This document shows, in pieces, positions 5,333 through 21,400 of a stretch of 64,000 nucleotides of DNA. Position 1 is the stretch's first letter. Each line of letters starts with the position of its first letter. This stretch comes from Patescibacteria group bacterium (GTDB taxonomy: Bacteria; Patescibacteriota; Patescibacteriia; UBA10025; JAHIVO01). The notes under the pieces are model-generated. The model made no database searches, was not told where the DNA came from, and saw only the letters and a program-made list of their open reading frames with translations. The position numbers and the translations under genes are program-made. The DNA lies in NCBI GenBank assembly GCA_041660605.1, contig JBAZWB010000002.1:1431-65430 (forward strand), in the 5' to 3' direction.

Positions 5333-5358
5333 ATATTTGTATAGGTATTATAAATCAA

Positions 5359-5385
5359 TTAGCACTCTCACGTCAAGAGTGCTAA
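5359..5385. promoter_or_regulatory. CIRCE operator (HrcA binding site) TTAGCACTC-N9-GAGTGCTAA
   Basis: perfect inverted repeat ttagcactc tcacgtcaa gagtgctaa 27-53 nt upstream of hrcA start. Confidence 0.92.
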
Positions 5386-5424
5386 TTCGGGTTTTTTATT
5401 ATTAAGTAACCAAAATACTAGTTA

Positions 5425-6603
5425 CTAGACATTAAAATCAACTGTCGTGCCATTTTCGTTTGTAATAACAGGATACCTGCCAGACAAATCCCACGATTTC
5501 GGAGAAACTAAACCATCAATCGTAACCGTTTTTAATACTTCAGATGTTGTCTCAGGGCTATAAAGACGATACTTAGTTTGATTCCCTTCTATCTCCCCGT
5601 ATAGAATTTGCCACTTTCCATCAGGGCTTGCTCCATTGTGCGGATTGCACGTTTCATTGATGTAATCATATCCTCCCCACTCGCCTTTCGGACTTCCCAC
5701 TGTTTCTTCGGTCTTTGTCTTTAGATTAATAAATGATATTGTCGAAAACGATCCACAACCTTCTCCGTACGGTACAGCAACTAAAACGTCATGTCCACTA
5801 TCCCAAATTATATTGTCAAAAAGAGTGGTTGAAACATGATGAGCTGATTTGTATATACTGATCGGGTCTTCGTTTGTAAAAGAATTACTTGCAATATCAT
5901 ACACGATCCCCCGGGACTCAAGTGGCTGTGGACTCACAAGTCCTGGTTCAAACGCTTGAGAATGAATATCAAATTTACCGATTTCAATTATTATTTTTGA
6001 TTGGTTAATCGATGAGTTTACATTATATACCTGTTCAAAAATCTCACTGCCAACTACCCAAGGGGAAACATTAGGAAGCTTAGTTAGGACTAGAGTGCTA
6101 GTATTAAATAAGTAAAACTCTGGATTAACACCAGTCTCATACTCTATATCCTGATCACCAAAACTATCAAAACGAGTAGTTTTAGTTTCTCCTTTTTTCC
6201 AAAAAAGTAATCCATAGCGCGTCGCCTGAACGTGATACGTACTAGCATCAAACCCAACGTCTAACGATTCTGCTAGAGTAGCAGACAAGTAATGATATAG
6301 TTTGCCATTTTTATAATAAAAATTATAATTACTCCAGGGCGCTTCTTCATGATAATAAGATTGAAATTCACCTGTCACAGTATCACCAGCAGGGTTACTT
6401 GCATTTGTCGCAACATTTGTATTTTGTGCAGCTGCGTTAGTATTCAGATTTGTATTTCGAACAGTGGCGTTCTTATTTACTATTGTTAAAGTCGAGTCAT
6501 CATGAACAAACGCCGCATAAATTCCTACCCCGATAGCTAAAACAACCACGATGATAATCAGCAAAGGGGTTATTTTTATTGAATTCTTCTGTGGAGTTTC
6601 CAT
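5425..6603 (-). CDS. membrane-anchored (signal-anchor) extracytoplasmic protein, hypothetical; Asn/Thr-rich linker
   Basis: 392 aa; METPQKNSIKITPLLIIIVVVLAIGVGIYAA... ; N-terminus paralogous (nucleotide level) to ORF 7502-9778. Confidence 0.7.
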   Translation of the reverse strand: METPQKNSIKITPLLIIIVVVLAIGVGIYAAFVHDDSTLTIVNKNATVRNTNLNTNAAAQNTNVATNASNPAGDTVTGEFQSYYHEEAPWSNYNFYYKNGKLYHYLSATLAESLDVGFDASTYHVQATRYGLLFWKKGETKTTRFDSFGDQDIEYETGVNPEFYLFNTSTLVLTKLPNVSPWVVGSEIFEQVYNVNSSINQSKIIIEIGKFDIHSQAFEPGLVSPQPLESRGIVYDIASNSFTNEDPISIYKSAHHVSTTLFDNIIWDSGHDVLVAVPYGEGCGSFSTISFINLKTKTEETVGSPKGEWGGYDYINETCNPHNGASPDGKWQILYGEIEGNQTKYRLYSPETTSEVLKTVTIDGLVSPKSWDLSGRYPVITNENGTTVDFNV

Positions 6604-6612
6604 ATATTTAAT

Positions 6613-7542
6613 TTATTTGTTACCAAAATACATTGTTATATAACTGGTCACTTCCGGAACATCATATTCCCCTGTCACCTCAGCACTATCGCTTGAATCA
6701 AGTAACTGGTAATTGCCCACTTCACGAAGTTGTAAATATTTAAGTACTGCCCGTACGGTCTGAGGGGAATCAACAAAGAGTTGGTTTACTAAGTCAGGAT
6801 TCATCTGTTGCAATAATGGAATGTTGACTCCATTCTGCCTCATCGCTTCTTCATGTGAAACATAATGAGCAAAATCCACACTTGCCAGGACTAATGATCG
6901 GATAGGAAGTATTTCGTTAAGCGCTGTGGCCAATGCGTCAATTGACTCGTTACTGGTGTTGGCCTGGACTGTAATCGGGATTATTCTCGCGCCTGGAAAA
7001 CTTCGGCGAATAAATGGCACTAATCCGTTTATTGAATGTTCAGCAGTAAATATTTTCTCATCAACCTGAATAACGCTTCTGCCTAACAATTCGTTTATAA
7101 TATCCGAAGTTGGTTCAACTTTTCCATATGGCGTATCCCAAGAAGCTTCTGAAGTAGCTAAGTGATAATAACTGCGATTCATATGATCAGGGCCAATTAG
7201 CACAATTGTATCATATTGCTCTCGGGCACCTAGCGTACCGAAAAAATTACCTAATTTATGATTAGCCAATAAATGATGCGGTACGATCCCTGCCGATACT
7301 GAATCTAGTTCTAAAGTGCCGTCAGCTCCCTCGTATCCGCGATCGTAAACATCAGATTTTAAGAAAAATGAACGATGCGCCAATTCATTTGATGCGTTTA
7401 CTGGTCCCTGATTTATGTTGGCTACAATATCTGAATTATTAACCAGCGCCCAGGCTGTGAAACCGCCAGCAATCAAACCAGCAAGCAGCAACACTATAAG
7501 CTTAGTGAAGCGCACCGCCCCACTCAACCACGGTAAACCCAT
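6613..7542 (-). CDS. Memo-like / AmmeMemoRadiSam-system protein B family protein with N-terminal TM anchor
   Basis: 309 aa; Memo family motifs GIVPHH, IVLIGPDH, EHSINGLVPF, DFAHY; start overlaps upstream gene by 41 nt. Confidence 0.65.
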   Translation of the reverse strand: MGLPWLSGAVRFTKLIVLLLAGLIAGGFTAWALVNNSDIVANINQGPVNASNELAHRSFFLKSDVYDRGYEGADGTLELDSVSAGIVPHHLLANHKLGNFFGTLGAREQYDTIVLIGPDHMNRSYYHLATSEASWDTPYGKVEPTSDIINELLGRSVIQVDEKIFTAEHSINGLVPFIRRSFPGARIIPITVQANTSNESIDALATALNEILPIRSLVLASVDFAHYVSHEEAMRQNGVNIPLLQQMNPDLVNQLFVDSPQTVRAVLKYLQLREVGNYQLLDSSDSAEVTGEYDVPEVTSYITMYFGNK

Positions 7543-9778
7543 ATCGTTGTGGTGTTTTAATATTTAATGGTTCAACTGAATAAGGAGATTCAAGCGGCTG
7601 ATAGTCCATGAACACTCGGATAATAGAATCAGGCGCAGGCGCAACTGTTAAAGGGGCAAGTTTCTCAAATGCGGACTGATCAACAAATGTAATAAAGTAG
7701 TACGGACTATCCTGCAACTTCGGCACCCAAAAGTTTAAAAAGTCCGATTTTTCTTGCGCATTAAGGCCTAATAATGTCAGCTTATCCTGTAAAAGTGCAG
7801 CTACTTCGGTATTTTTTACGACAAAACCCTGCTTAGGCATTTCATAATTAAAACCGAATCCTTCCCAGAAAAGATATGGATAAGTTGCCATACCATCATA
7901 TTCCAGCTCCCCATTTGGGTGAGCTGTAACATTCCACCCGCCGTTTGGATAAACCGGATCAGTCAAAGAAAAGCCGCCGTTTGGAGCCACCTGGACATTT
8001 ACCTTAGTTGTTTGCTCAGGATACAAATAAATGACGGGCTTGCCGCACTCCACTGCGGGCAGAAAAGACACTTGTTTGAAGCGCACCCAATGGTCAAACG
8101 GATCCTTCCAATAGAAGAATGGATGCGAAGCGGTAAACGTTTCATAATCAGGCTTTGTATCTTCCTGCGGTAAATAAAATTGATCGTAAGTTTCCCTTAA
8201 TACTTCATTATTTTTATCAATGTATTCATAAACTTTATCCCCGGTACTGGTCTTGCCTGCGGCCTTCAGTTTGTCCAGTCCGCCCATTTCTTCCTCAGTG
8301 AAGATGGCGTGACAAGTACTACTGCCGCATCCGCCAGTCGGTTCATTAAAAGTATATTCAGCTGAATTTGAATTCCCGTCGCTCCAAGTAATTTCCGGGA
8401 TAAAACTGTTTGAAGACGAGAAATGCTCACGCTCTGCAAAATCTTTTATAAATTTAAGTTTGAGGTGGTATAGCCTTACCATGCCGTCCGGCATAACGAT
8501 GAAATAACAATTATACTGGGGATCGAAATATACTGCTCCCATTGAGGCATCAGTAAACACTGCCTGGGCTTGAGGATATTCAGTAGAACGCTTTTTAAGG
8601 TCGAATATTTCGGCGGCTAAATCAACCTTTGAATTAGGAATATCTATCACTGTTGGATAATCTAATCCAGAAATTGTAGAGGCAATATCATATATAAATG
8701 GAATTGTAAAATATGAAAGATTATCAGAATATTTTTCAAGATAGGTTAAGGACAATTTATCAGGATCGTAAACAACTCTATATAGATCCCGCCACCCCAT
8801 TTCCCCAAATTGCAAAATAACAACCAAATAATCACCGGCATACCTACCATTAGCGATTTCGCCTTCTTTATAATATTGGCGAAACCCATAAGAACCATCC
8901 AGACTTTCGATAACTGGATCAATTATATTTAATTCTATAGGTTCCTTTAGCCAGTTGATTTTCAATGCATATCCGTCGTTAGCTGAAAAAGATGTTGTAT
9001 TTTTTACTGCTGGAATAGATAACAAGGGCATCTTTTCAATAAATTTTACACTTTTTAAAATATCATTAATTACTCCTGCTTGTGTGGTTAATGATCTAAC
9101 AGAACCAGAAAAGTTAATTTCATAAACCCGATCCCCGCCATCAATAAAACCCCATAAATCAGTATAATCCTGGTGCGTTTCCGCTATGTTTAAAATAAAA
9201 ATTTTATTTTCTCCCTCAAACGCAACTGGCTCATTAAAAAGAAATTCTGTTGAACGATTGCTTTTGTACTTTTCAACCCACTGCGCAAGCGTATCATGGC
9301 TGTCGTTTTTATGATAAATTACACTTAAATTAAGGTAATATCTGTCTTGAGAAGTACCATATTGTCCATATGCTGAAAATAATCCATCCCCGTCATTCAA
9401 GCCCATGCCCGATTCATTAAAAGTCCAATCCGTTGGGATATCTAATGATAAACCATGGTCTCCGTGCTGGTACTTTATCGTTTGCCATTTTGTTGATTCA
9501 GAAGCGGCAGTTGTATCATGCGGCGCTACAATCACCGTTGGATTTACCTCAGAATTCACGGGGACATTTATATTGGTAATTTCATTAATATTTTGTTCAA
9601 CCGTATTTACATTGATATTAATGTTTGTATTTCTAACTCCGGTATTTTTATTTGCAAGTTTCGACGTCGAATCATCATGGACAAGCGCCGCATAAATCCC
9701 TACCCCGATAGCTAAAACAACCACGATAATAATCAGCAGTGGCGCAAATTTTAAAGAATGCTTCTGTGGTGTTTCCAT
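7502..9778 (-). CDS. large membrane-anchored extracytoplasmic protein (758 aa), hypothetical
   Basis: signal-anchor METPQKHSLKFAPLLIIIVVVLAIGVGIYAA then Asn/Thr-rich linker; long uninterrupted ORF. Confidence 0.75.
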   Translation of the reverse strand: METPQKHSLKFAPLLIIIVVVLAIGVGIYAALVHDDSTSKLANKNTGVRNTNININVNTVEQNINEITNINVPVNSEVNPTVIVAPHDTTAASESTKWQTIKYQHGDHGLSLDIPTDWTFNESGMGLNDGDGLFSAYGQYGTSQDRYYLNLSVIYHKNDSHDTLAQWVEKYKSNRSTEFLFNEPVAFEGENKIFILNIAETHQDYTDLWGFIDGGDRVYEINFSGSVRSLTTQAGVINDILKSVKFIEKMPLLSIPAVKNTTSFSANDGYALKINWLKEPIELNIIDPVIESLDGSYGFRQYYKEGEIANGRYAGDYLVVILQFGEMGWRDLYRVVYDPDKLSLTYLEKYSDNLSYFTIPFIYDIASTISGLDYPTVIDIPNSKVDLAAEIFDLKKRSTEYPQAQAVFTDASMGAVYFDPQYNCYFIVMPDGMVRLYHLKLKFIKDFAEREHFSSSNSFIPEITWSDGNSNSAEYTFNEPTGGCGSSTCHAIFTEEEMGGLDKLKAAGKTSTGDKVYEYIDKNNEVLRETYDQFYLPQEDTKPDYETFTASHPFFYWKDPFDHWVRFKQVSFLPAVECGKPVIYLYPEQTTKVNVQVAPNGGFSLTDPVYPNGGWNVTAHPNGELEYDGMATYPYLFWEGFGFNYEMPKQGFVVKNTEVAALLQDKLTLLGLNAQEKSDFLNFWVPKLQDSPYYFITFVDQSAFEKLAPLTVAPAPDSIIRVFMDYQPLESPYSVEPLNIKTPQRYGFTVVEWGGALH

Positions 9779-9808
9779 AAATTTATTTAATTTAAAAATT
9801 CTTAATTT

Positions 9809-19488: not shown

Positions 19489-21400
19489 CGCTATTGTTCA
19501 AAAGACTCCAGTTATGGAAAAAGCTGTCCTTGGTAAAATATTTTTCACCAGATAAAGGGTCTAGGGTGATGATCTTGGTGGGGTTATCCGCCGAGCCGAT
19601 AAAGCCGATAACCAGGCGCGTGTGCTCGCCGTTAATGGCCACCACGGTTCCGCCTTGCGGAGTTTTCCAGTCAATGCGCGTGCCGCTGCCCGCCGTACCC
19701 CAGACAATCACCGGGTTGCCTTTCTTGATTTCCGAGGTTAAATCCGCCAGGCTGCCGTCGGTAAAAGCCCGGGCAGTGCGGTAAGCGCGGGCAGCCTGGG
19801 CGATCGGCTGCCAGTAAACGCCGTAGCCGGTGGACGGCTGGTGCCCGTCAATATCGCCGACAAAAGCCAGATTAGGATTGCCCCAGACGCCGTCCGATTT
19901 TGGCGTGGTATCAAAGCCAATGGCGTCAATCAAAGTGGCTTCTGAAACGTCCACTCCCCGGAATTTTAGAGCCATCACTAAGGTGGCCACTTCACAGCTT
20001 AAATTATGCTCCTGCCGGTGGAAAGCGACATTCAATTTAGTAACGGAAAGCTCCGTGGTGAAAGAATATTCATATTTTTCTTCCGAAGCGTAACCTGCCC
20101 CAGCCTTAACGCCCGATGCCAGCGAAAATGCGTAGGCGGTATTATAGCTGAGCGGTGCCGTCGGCGTAAAAATCATGGCATTGCCATCCCAGCTGAATAC
20201 TCCCTCAGTCGCGGGTGAAATAGAAAACTTGCCCTCCGCGGATTTTTTATCAACCGCCTGGTCAAAGGTTGTTTTAATGGCGCTGTTAATCCCAATGCCG
20301 GAATATCCATTGTCGGGAAAGGCTTCAGAAACACGTACCGGCCCTAATGTCTTAAACTGATGCACGGAATCCTTCTCCAGATAGCCACCGTCGAAAGTTT
20401 TAGTGCCGGCGGCCAGAGTGACCGTATATTCCGTGTCTTTCTTCAGGGCGGCTGACTGAAAAGTTATTGTTTTATAGTCGTCGGTTTTCCACTGGCCTTC
20501 TACTGCCGGCTCTATCTTAATATTATTGCTAAATGAATCCATGTCCACATTTTTGTCCAAAGTTATGGAGACTGACTGCCCAAGGGAAACATTGTCACCG
20601 GTCGGAGAAAAATCAACAATGCCCGGGGCCTCCTGCACCTGCCATTCAGTTTCCTTGATTAACTCCGGCTCCGCCTGATAGCCAACCTCATCGGTGCCAA
20701 AAGTATAACGAATATTTTTTTTGAAAATTTTAAAAGTGTACTTCTGGCCTTGCAACAGATGCTCCTGGGGTTTAACCGTAAATATTTTTCCGCCATTATC
20801 GCTGGTTACTTCCATCTCAGCCTCCGGGACCAGACTGAACTGATACTCTGTCAACTTTTTACTGTTTTTATCCAGGGTGATCTCCCAGACAACTTCCGGA
20901 CTGATCGGCTGATCGTTGGCAGGTGAAATAGAATCTATTTTCGGCGCATCTTCAACCTGAAAAGTATAAGTGTAACTTTTTGACTGCCAAAATGAAGGCA
21001 GGATGCTTTTTACATTTGAAACAACAACTTCATAAGTTGTCCCGGGTTTCCAGGTTAGCTCCGGTCGGAAGACGATAGATCTGGATAGATGATTAGTAAA
21101 TAAATAGCGGCCATATTCCGTCTCACCATATACTTCGGGCGTTACTTCAATTTTCAGATTTCTGACCACCGGCAGGTTAAAATGAAATTCCAGGGTAGAA
21201 TCGGTGGTTACGAGGCCATTCTCCATCTTCATAACCAAAGATGGTTTTGGTGTCTGTACAAAATATAAATAGCCAATCATAACAAAAAAAAGTATTATAC
21301 CAATAATACTCCAAAATAGTGTTATTTTTCTGGTTTTGATTGATTTTTGTTTTTTATTTTGGCCAATATTTAACATGCTAATGAATAAATTATAACACAA
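19472..21400 (-). CDS. large surface protein: signal-anchor, tandem Ig-like (SbsA-Ig-like) repeats, C-terminal C39-like cysteine peptidase domain
   Basis: 642 aa; repeats with ISPANDQPISPE / FSPTGDNVSLGQ / FPDNGYSGI motifs; C-terminus HNLSCEVATLVMAL ... GEHTRLVIGFIG. Confidence 0.75.
   Translation of the reverse strand: MCYNLFISMLNIGQNKKQKSIKTRKITLFWSIIGIILFFVMIGYLYFVQTPKPSLVMKMENGLVTTDSTLEFHFNLPVVRNLKIEVTPEVYGETEYGRYLFTNHLSRSIVFRPELTWKPGTTYEVVVSNVKSILPSFWQSKSYTYTFQVEDAPKIDSISPANDQPISPEVVWEITLDKNSKKLTEYQFSLVPEAEMEVTSDNGGKIFTVKPQEHLLQGQKYTFKIFKKNIRYTFGTDEVGYQAEPELIKETEWQVQEAPGIVDFSPTGDNVSLGQSVSITLDKNVDMDSFSNNIKIEPAVEGQWKTDDYKTITFQSAALKKDTEYTVTLAAGTKTFDGGYLEKDSVHQFKTLGPVRVSEAFPDNGYSGIGINSAIKTTFDQAVDKKSAEGKFSISPATEGVFSWDGNAMIFTPTAPLSYNTAYAFSLASGVKAGAGYASEEKYEYSFTTELSVTKLNVAFHRQEHNLSCEVATLVMALKFRGVDVSEATLIDAIGFDTTPKSDGVWGNPNLAFVGDIDGHQPSTGYGVYWQPIAQAARAYRTARAFTDGSLADLTSEIKKGNPVIVWGTAGSGTRIDWKTPQGGTVVAINGEHTRLVIGFIGSADNPTKIITLDPLSGEKYFTKDSFFHNWSLLNNSGVVVE

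Follow-up and report, generated by a model that had tools for sequence, protein, structure and literature searches.

A predicted exported Memo-family protein encoded beside a large anchored surface protein in a Patescibacteria genome and its relatives

The Memo family spans bacteria to humans, and its human member, MEMO1, has been studied in cancer; to our knowledge, a reaction has been established for none of its members, nor has the AmmeMemoRadiSam system of bacteria been characterised. Radical-SAM chemistry is cytoplasmic. Among envelope proteins, bacterial alpha-2-macroglobulin (A2M) and PBP1c form a gene pair of Gram-negative bacteria. The iron and copper ligands of MEMO1 are His49, His81 and Cys244, the last of which sits where LigB, DesB and aminophenol dioxygenase have a glutamate ligand, and MEMO1 has no dioxygenase activity on standard substrates and no demonstrated enzymatic activity (PMC11081632). 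Here we describe a Memo-like gene in 64,000 nucleotides (nt) of a Patescibacteria group bacterium (contig JBAZWB010000002.1), the whole of which we call the window. With a probability of about 0.65, we regard its product as a metal enzyme with the Memo/LigB fold, tethered to the membrane and facing away from the cytoplasm, which stands outside AmmeMemoRadiSam and is the constant part of a two-gene surface module with its neighbour, hereafter the partner. The features on which this reading is built are the following:

6613..7542, minus strand: Memo-like gene, 309 amino acids (aa), ATG at 7542, stop codon at 6613-6615 (from the list of open reading frames (ORFs) and the translation)
6616..7386, minus strand: globular Memo/LigB-fold domain, residues 53-309
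7444..7500, minus strand: predicted export signal, hydrophobic helix of residues 15-33, LIVLLLAGLIAGGFTAWAL, Kyte-Doolittle peak 2.29
7502..9778, minus strand: partner gene, encoding an anchored surface protein of 758 aa, with a 41-nt overlap with the Memo gene
7502..7542, minus strand: the 41 nt shared by the two genes, where the partner gene ends (3') and the Memo gene starts

By profile scores and by fold, the product of 6613..7542 is a Memo-family protein, as a preliminary description of the window had claimed. The alignment to the Pfam Memo hidden Markov model (HMM; PF01875), which that description had suggested as a check, gave 90 bits against a cut-off of 27 (E 2e-25), with residues 99-304 covering HMM positions 52-268 in a single stretch, and the NCBIfam model TIGR04336 (AmmeMemoRadiSam system protein B) gave 102.3 bits (cut-off 26). 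All four motifs listed at the time (IVPHH, IGPDH, EHSINGLVPF and DFAHY) are found in the 309-aa translation, where they read GIVPHH (His89, His90), LIGPDH (His120), AEHSINGLVPF (His169) and SVDFAHY (Asp223, His226). The Pfam LigB model (PF02900) did not match the protein at E<=0.01, and two of its relatives showed sub-threshold LigB matches of 22-23 bits (cut-off 26.3). An AlphaFold2 (AF2) model built on 16 homologues, with a mean predicted local distance difference test score (pLDDT) of 90.8, begins with a helix (residues 4-43), which a disordered linker (45-51) joins to a compact domain starting near residue 55. When this model was compared with the PDB by Foldseek, the top five matches were chains of human MEMO1 (E 4e-15, TM-scores 0.64-0.71), followed by TK2203 and then by LigB-type DOPA, aminophenol, gallate and protocatechuate dioxygenases (E 1e-7 to 1e-5), in keeping with a MEMO1-like fold.

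A public gene call (P0001) begins the protein at a GTG at 7494, which yields 293 aa. We favour the ATG at 7542, because the same in-frame ATG and an identical 41-nt overlap recur in two relatives, L001 and L004, which also carry the N-terminal peptide LSNGAVR(Y/F)xK seen in the window. As evidence for the ATG the conservation of this peptide is not independent, for its codons overlap, in a different frame, those of the conserved EWGGAL with which the upstream protein ends. A hydrophobic N-terminus results from either start. The 41-nt overlap with the upstream surface-protein gene, as first reported, is exact, the upstream gene ending at 7502 and the Memo ATG lying at 7542, and such an arrangement suggests translational coupling of the partner and Memo genes.

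The export call is a prediction that rests on hydrophobicity, charge distribution and comparison with relatives, the last being the strongest of these lines. Arg11 and Lys14 precede the hydrophobic helix and the 15 residues that follow it contain neither Lys nor Arg; an N-in, C-out orientation is therefore predicted. The hydrophobic segment announced in the preliminary description is present at residues 15-33 and ends in Ala-Trp-Ala|Leu (A-W-A|L); it may be a permanent signal anchor, as proposed there, or a cleavable signal peptide, and both would place the domain outside the membrane. Of 83 Memo relatives (see below), 78 begin with a hydrophobic helix, and a lipobox is present in 15, the lipoprotein lipoboxes in five of the first 16 homologues reading LSGC, LTGC, LAGC, VTGC and LAAC; where gene calls of relatives seemed to lack a signal, extension to an upstream in-frame start restored the transmembrane helix. 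An extracytoplasmic location of the window protein, previously put forward as a possibility, is thus supported by the charge bias, by the helices and lipoboxes of its relatives, by fusions to CapA domains and by the anchored nature of the partner families (both described below).

Related loci were collected by scanning a single genome of each species, the eight closest Memo sequences serving as query; this returned 80 loci, mostly from Patescibacteria and also from Bacillota, Atribacterota, Chloroflexi and Coprothermobacterota. Many of the Patescibacteria-type loci (L010, L018, L019, L023 and other 'binchicken'/TPA_asm entries) are titled 'uncultured Gammaproteobacteria bacterium', labels which look unreliable and were not used for taxonomy. 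ORF calling, HMM searches and all-against-all clustering gave a set of 83 non-redundant loci, in 77 of which a member of one of three families of large proteins is encoded within four genes of Memo:

Partner family: 31 loci, plus one locus that also has A2M
A2M: 25 loci
DUF3160: 20 loci (Pfam E 9e-151 for a representative)
None of the three families: 6 loci, two of them at contig ends

In 72 of the 83 loci the large gene directly adjoins Memo on the same strand, usually upstream, with an overlap of 4-41 nt or within about 20 nt. Orthologues of the window partner (747-762 aa, 41-52% identity) lie directly upstream of Memo in all four close relatives that were retrieved (L001, L002, L004 and L005). 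In the more distant L008 the Memo gene is followed by genes for proteins of 636 and 458 aa, the first of which is 42% identical to the window partner over the C-terminal ~280 aa, while the second shows weak similarity to only part of that region. In a second arrangement a Memo homologue follows, and overlaps, a gene for a giant A2M (L002 4711-5580; L006/L007), the overlap in A2M-Memo loci being usually 4 nt. All three large-protein families are N-terminally anchored and they are mutually unrelated. Nearest-neighbour Memo sequences share the class of partner in 69 of 71 cases; this grouping by neighbour is consistent with co-evolution, host taxonomy being a partial confounder. The pairing was also seen from the partner's side: 80 metagenome loci were sampled by similarity to the partner, and in 37 of the 44 with at least 1 kb on both sides Memo adjoins the partner, in both gene orders.

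Taken as a whole, the exported Memo clade is widespread and apparently undescribed; in the full-text literature we found no description of an exported Memo, of Memo-A2M, Memo-DUF3160 or Memo-CapA combinations or of the partner family, although the coverage was incomplete and this is absence of evidence only. The anchored copy without its usual partners had at first been considered unusual. The AmmeMemoRadiSam genes are indeed missing from the window, yet the protein has a partner of its own in the 758-aa gene and belongs to a widespread clade. Neighbouring genes for MetRS, CvpA, TatD, a MurA-like protein and HrcA were judged to reflect lineage synteny and were placed outside the module. The A2M proteins beside exported Memo show two peculiarities: in Moraniibacteria-type genomes (L069 608-5803; L007 2-2386) they carry a Hint/intein-like insertion (PT-HINT, Intein_splicing), and the thioester motif GCxEQ is kept in only 8 of 20 full-length A2M neighbours.

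The partner protein itself had no match in Pfam (to E<=1), NCBIfam or PADLOC. Its AF2 model (pLDDT 84) contains a helix at residues 11-36 and low pLDDT over residues 35-95, and it can be divided as follows:

9671..9748, minus strand: membrane helix at the N-terminus (residues 11-36); a disordered linker rich in Asn comes next
9044..9487, minus strand: PsbP-like domain, about residues 98-245, a range set from the secondary structure of the model
7505..8911, minus strand: conserved core, about residues 290-758, with the motifs ECGKPVIYLYP, YPYLFWEG and EWGG

Foldseek matched the partner model to PsbP, CyanoP, LpqN, DcrB and Tsi3 (E 3e-5 to 1e-3). As a profile search against 1.84 billion representative proteins showed, this PsbP-like region is confined to a subgroup of about 750 aa and is absent from most members of the family, which comprises 7197 clusters (50% identity) at E<=1e-3, of which 3859 at E<=1e-30; most of the clusters have a length of 550-650 aa and, in the window partner, cover residues ~290-758 only. 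Ten sampled members are either unnamed or called 'hypothetical protein', and an N-terminal transmembrane helix is present in 28 of 29 members of the family. The core, which is modelled as a beta-rich region followed by an alpha/beta region, had no PDB match by profile search or Foldseek, and Foldseek against BFVD gave no identity for it either; outside the family, the best match in structure is to an uncharacterised protein of Terrestrivirus (E 1e-9). The invariant polar residues of the core include Glu577, Lys580, Glu639, Glu676, Arg721, Arg745 and Glu752, with Cys578 nearly so, and there is no invariant His. The idea of a domain common to the partner family, A2M and DUF3160 was rejected, as the three families proved unrelated on comparison.

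A C-terminal PGA_cap (CapA) domain of the metallophosphoesterase type is found in 36 of the 83 Memo homologues (total length ~570-630 aa, Pfam E ~1e-57), and the fusions are distributed over the neighbour classes as follows:

Partner-family class: 18 PGA_cap-fused, 13 unfused
DUF3160 class: 12 PGA_cap-fused, 8 unfused
A2M class: 0 PGA_cap-fused, 25 unfused

PGA_cap (PF09587) is absent from the window protein and from all ORFs of the window. A separate PGA_cap gene was looked for near the other unfused Memo copies and was not found, and there are no PgsB/PgsC-type genes among the commonest Pfam families of the 148 genes that lie one or two positions from Memo.

None of these contexts contains a recurrent AmmeMemoRadiSam partner. 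The lack of AMMECR1-like and radical-SAM genes first noticed in the window was confirmed over its 64 kb by motif and Pfam scans: no such gene is present, no real ORF carries CX3CX2C or the AMMECR1-type GCIG, and the ORFs without annotation matched neither AMMECR1 nor Radical_SAM. Both families are likewise outside the 25 commonest Pfam families (the rarest with two members) among the 148 flanking genes, where tRNA synthetases, CvpA, TatD, MurA-like proteins and HrcA are the commonest, and CX3CX2C occurs in only 2 of 265 neighbouring ORFs. Because the flanking families are housekeeping and AmmeMemoRadiSam genes do not recur, we regard the partner-Memo pair as a self-contained module in varied surroundings. 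The exported Memo stands apart from AmmeMemoRadiSam genes in all the contexts that we examined, and the name 'AmmeMemoRadiSam system protein B', which NCBI gives to relatives, is probably a misnomer in this context.

Conservation within the clade is concentrated at a site that resembles, and in one position probably differs from, that of MEMO1. Pro88, His89, His90, Pro118, His120, Ser221, Asp223, Phe224, His226, Thr299 and Ser300 are invariant in 85 sequences, bar gaps in partial ones, and Ser259 is also listed as invariant in the clade; His169 is conserved in 76 of 82 sequences, and the column of Asp258 holds Asp in 80 of 81 and Cys in one. The profile alignment maps residues of the window protein to MEMO1 as follows:

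His89 to His49
His120 to His81
His169 to His131
Asp223 to Asp189
His226 to His192

For the third metal ligand, Cys244 of MEMO1, the direct alignments (MAFFT with MEMO1, pairwise global, and hhalign against a single MEMO1 and a 17-sequence profile) gave inconsistent or truncated tails and were not used. A MEMO1 fragment from Asn241 corresponds to positions 221-268 of the Memo HMM, and the PF01875 coordinates put Asp258 at about position 222-224, in the Cys244 column. In the AF2 model Asp258 stands two residues ahead of the helix 260-272 that precedes the penultimate strand, a relation to its helix which we take to be that of Cys244 in the 3BCZ structure. We place Asp258 at the Cys244 position on the strength of these HMM coordinates, of the order of secondary structures and of the one clade member with Cys there. 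The MEMO1-type His-His-Cys site is in this respect incomplete: inspection of the metal ligands, likewise called for in the preliminary description, found His89 and His120 kept and Cys244 probably replaced by Asp258. The protein would thereby have a restored 2-His-1-carboxylate site with both flanking histidines, like the LigB dioxygenases.

The surroundings of the pair in the window had been described as rich in surface proteins, and the flanking proteins of 228, 758 and 392 aa are indeed all anchored, each having a hydrophobic anchor at its start and an Asn-rich linker behind it. Together with Memo they make up four genes for anchored proteins in head-to-tail order on the minus strand (5425..10495), the outer two of which are:

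9809..10495, minus strand: anchored, Cys-rich protein of 228 aa, probably the first gene of the operon, with a gap of 30 nt to the partner gene
5425..6603, minus strand: anchored protein of 392 aa, 9 nt past the Memo stop codon and 92 nt from hrcA, probably the last gene of the operon

A promoter-like site precedes the 228-aa gene (10542..10515, minus strand). The window also carries hrcA-grpE-dnaK and ribosomal-protein operons. Just upstream of hrcA, at 5347-5387, lies a perfect inverted repeat of the CIRCE type (AATTAGCACTC-N9-GAGTGCTAATT), and a promoter with near-consensus -35 and -10 elements overlaps it. CIRCE and this promoter mark hrcA-grpE-hsp20-dnaK as a separate heat-shock operon, which bounds the surface-protein operon at its 3' end. 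The N-terminal 76 aa of the 392-aa protein (signal anchor and Asn-rich linker) are 64% identical to those of the partner, a degree of similarity that suggests recent duplication or exchange of an export/linker module. This protein has no Pfam match and is not conserved across the related loci, and within the operon conservation in relatives is limited to the partner-Memo pair.

Upstream of the pair the window encodes two anchored Peptidase_C39_2-like proteins (12023-12832 and 19472-21400), one of them with Big_5 domains; both genes are syntenic in a Kerfeldbacteria genome (L001 1-1246 and 2274-3083), and the 269-aa proteins are 50% identical. Proteins of 1392 and 584 aa (12948-17126 and 17593-19347) share a zinc-ribbon-like N-terminus, MPEQxPxNxCxxCGxPxExGEHDCPNAP. 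A 211-aa protein adjoining dnaK (370-1005) matches HEPN_Cthe2314 (E 2e-8) and possibly represents a toxin or defence-type nuclease domain.

The mechanism that we propose can be outlined as follows. The Memo gene would be co-transcribed, and probably translationally coupled, with the upstream gene for the anchored protein, whose place is taken in other lineages by an A2M or a DUF3160 protein. The Memo domain would then reside on the outer face of the membrane beside the partner, and may act on one of two targets: the partner itself, which it would mature or modify, or a ligand in the envelope bound by the partner. We infer a physical or functional interaction of the two proteins as well as the type of chemistry, which would be non-oxidative and metal-dependent, with a phosphate-bearing or polymeric envelope substrate. 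This chemistry is weakly preferred over O2-dependent ring cleavage, because the hosts are mostly anaerobes, the match to Memo exceeds that to LigB and fusions of the CapA type are frequent. A constant enzyme combined with interchangeable, unrelated large partners is a pattern that could reflect a dedicated maturation factor or the shared catalytic subunit of binding or trap proteins, for which A2M-PBP1c, an envelope enzyme paired with A2M, may serve as a loose precedent.

Several observations weigh against this interpretation. Adjacency and apparent co-evolution of Memo and partner are correlative only. A 2-His-1-carboxylate site with both catalytic histidines is the pattern of a true extradiol dioxygenase, which argues against non-oxidative chemistry, and the equivalence of Asp258 and Cys244 is itself drawn from HMM coordinates and the order of secondary structures, with ambiguous direct alignments. 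The window protein has neither a CapA domain nor a CapA gene nearby, so that the phosphoester idea may not apply to it, and A2M-linked Memo copies are never fused to CapA. The absence of AMMECR1 and radical-SAM genes covers 64 kb of the source genome.

The chemical objection leads to a different reading of the same protein, namely that it is an extracytoplasmic extradiol dioxygenase or oxidase of the catechol/DOPA type, in which His89, His120 and Asp258 would coordinate Fe(II), His169 and His226 would serve in acid/base catalysis and the substrate would be an aromatic or catecholic group on the partner or in the surroundings. Conserved counterparts of all five residues of the LigB/DesB catalytic centre exist in the Memo clade, a carboxylate appears to stand in place of the unusual Cys of MEMO1, and both the Foldseek matches to DOPA, aminophenol, gallate and protocatechuate dioxygenases (E 1e-7 to 1e-5) and the weak LigB matches of some clade members point in this direction. 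We nevertheless find it unlikely, as the best matches in sequence and fold are to Memo and not to LigB, the window protein lacks a LigB match at E<=0.01 and the Pfam survey of flanking genes revealed no aromatic catabolism nearby. The hosts belong to largely anaerobic lineages (groundwater Patescibacteria, Atribacterota, Clostridia and Coprothermobacterota), and this too speaks against an oxygenase, as does the inactivity of MEMO1 as a dioxygenase on standard substrates (PMC11081632). The binding of iron and copper by MEMO1, a protein without demonstrated enzymatic activity (PMC11081632), may suggest a non-catalytic role: a metal-binding or scaffold subunit, for example a protein that binds iron or copper outside the cytoplasm, or a metallochaperone which would load the fused CapA domain or the partner. 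The conserved metal ligands of the clade and its frequent fusion to a dinuclear metallophosphoesterase would fit such a role, which we judge improbable in view of the invariant or conserved residues that are not ligands (His90, His169, Asp223, His226, Ser221, Thr299 and Ser300) and rather suggest substrate handling, and of the lack of obvious metal sites in A2M and partner-family proteins, the partner core having no invariant His.

We attach very little weight to the explanation closest to the automatic annotation, by which the protein would be a canonical, cytoplasmic AmmeMemoRadiSam protein B with partners elsewhere in the genome and a hydrophobic N-terminus that is a start-codon artefact or an N-in anchor. 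Its TIGR04336 score of 102 bits, the name given by NCBI to close relatives and the 64-kb extent of the inspected genome span are in its favour; it is disfavoured by the hydrophobic N-terminus obtained from both candidate starts, the positive charges N-terminal to the helix, the export signals of 78 of 83 relatives (15 of them lipoproteins), the presence of a different conserved partner and the survey of neighbours, in which AMMECR1 and radical-SAM genes do not recur among 148 flanking genes and CX3CX2C is found in 2 of 265 ORFs.

Returning to the membrane-tethered metal enzyme, it is tempting to speculate that the exported Memo, alone or fused to CapA, and its interchangeable anchored protein represent an unrecognised two-component envelope system widespread in single-membrane and candidate-phyla bacteria, in which Memo would activate, modify or assist a 'binder' or 'trap'. 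Such a system would be to monoderms what the defence-and-repair pair A2M-PBP1c is to Gram-negative bacteria; we consider this extension possible and put it forward tentatively. If true, this would be the first time that a Memo-family protein is placed in a physiological substrate context. The novelty lies not in fold and family, which are known, but in the cellular location, in the metal ligand that appears to be altered and in a new conserved partnership. The exported clade offers four handles on the family: it is predicted to lie outside the cell, its site is probably His-His-Asp versus the His-His-Cys of MEMO1, a recurrent neighbour presents itself as likely substrate or co-worker, and fusion to a phosphoesterase is frequent. 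The clade also reveals an accessory gene for the alpha-2-macroglobulins of single-membrane bacteria, brings to light a very large surface-protein family (~7,200 clusters at 50% identity) outside the domain databases, and makes plain that automatic annotation gives the name 'AmmeMemoRadiSam system protein B' to proteins which probably stand outside that system.

Compared with the described systems, the window protein shares with MEMO1 (PDB 3BCZ, 7KQ8, 7L5C) the fold, the Pfam family and five His/Asp residues, but identity is only ~15% and the insertion of MEMO1 after His192 is lacking; MEMO1 is cytosolic and binds metal via Cys244, whereas the window protein is predicted to be exported and probably has Asp there. 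To AmmeMemoRadiSam protein B (TIGR04336) it is linked by a score above the HMM cut-off and by the name NCBI gives its relatives, and it differs in its predicted export and in having a large surface protein as its conserved neighbour, with AMMECR1-like and radical-SAM genes absent from the 64-kb window and not recurrent in the 83 related loci. With the class III extradiol dioxygenases (LigB, DesB, 2-aminophenol and DOPA 4,5-dioxygenases) it has in common the superfamily fold and possibly a 2-His-1-carboxylate site with two catalytic histidines, but it scores as Memo and not as LigB, would carry Asp rather than Glu, appears to be exported and lacks a gene context of aromatic catabolism. In CapA/PgsA (PGA_cap), membrane-anchored proteins that resemble metallophosphoesterases, the comparison is with a domain that the window protein lacks and for which no gene lies nearby, whereas in 36 of the 83 members of the clade Memo and PGA_cap are fused behind the same N-terminal anchor. 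Finally, the module differs from A2M-PBP1c in that its accessory enzyme is Memo-like and not a penicillin-binding protein, and in that the large protein of the window belongs to an unrelated family without a Pfam entry; the two are alike in that a big anchored envelope protein is encoded beside a dedicated envelope enzyme, and in 25 loci it is A2M with which the exported Memo is paired.

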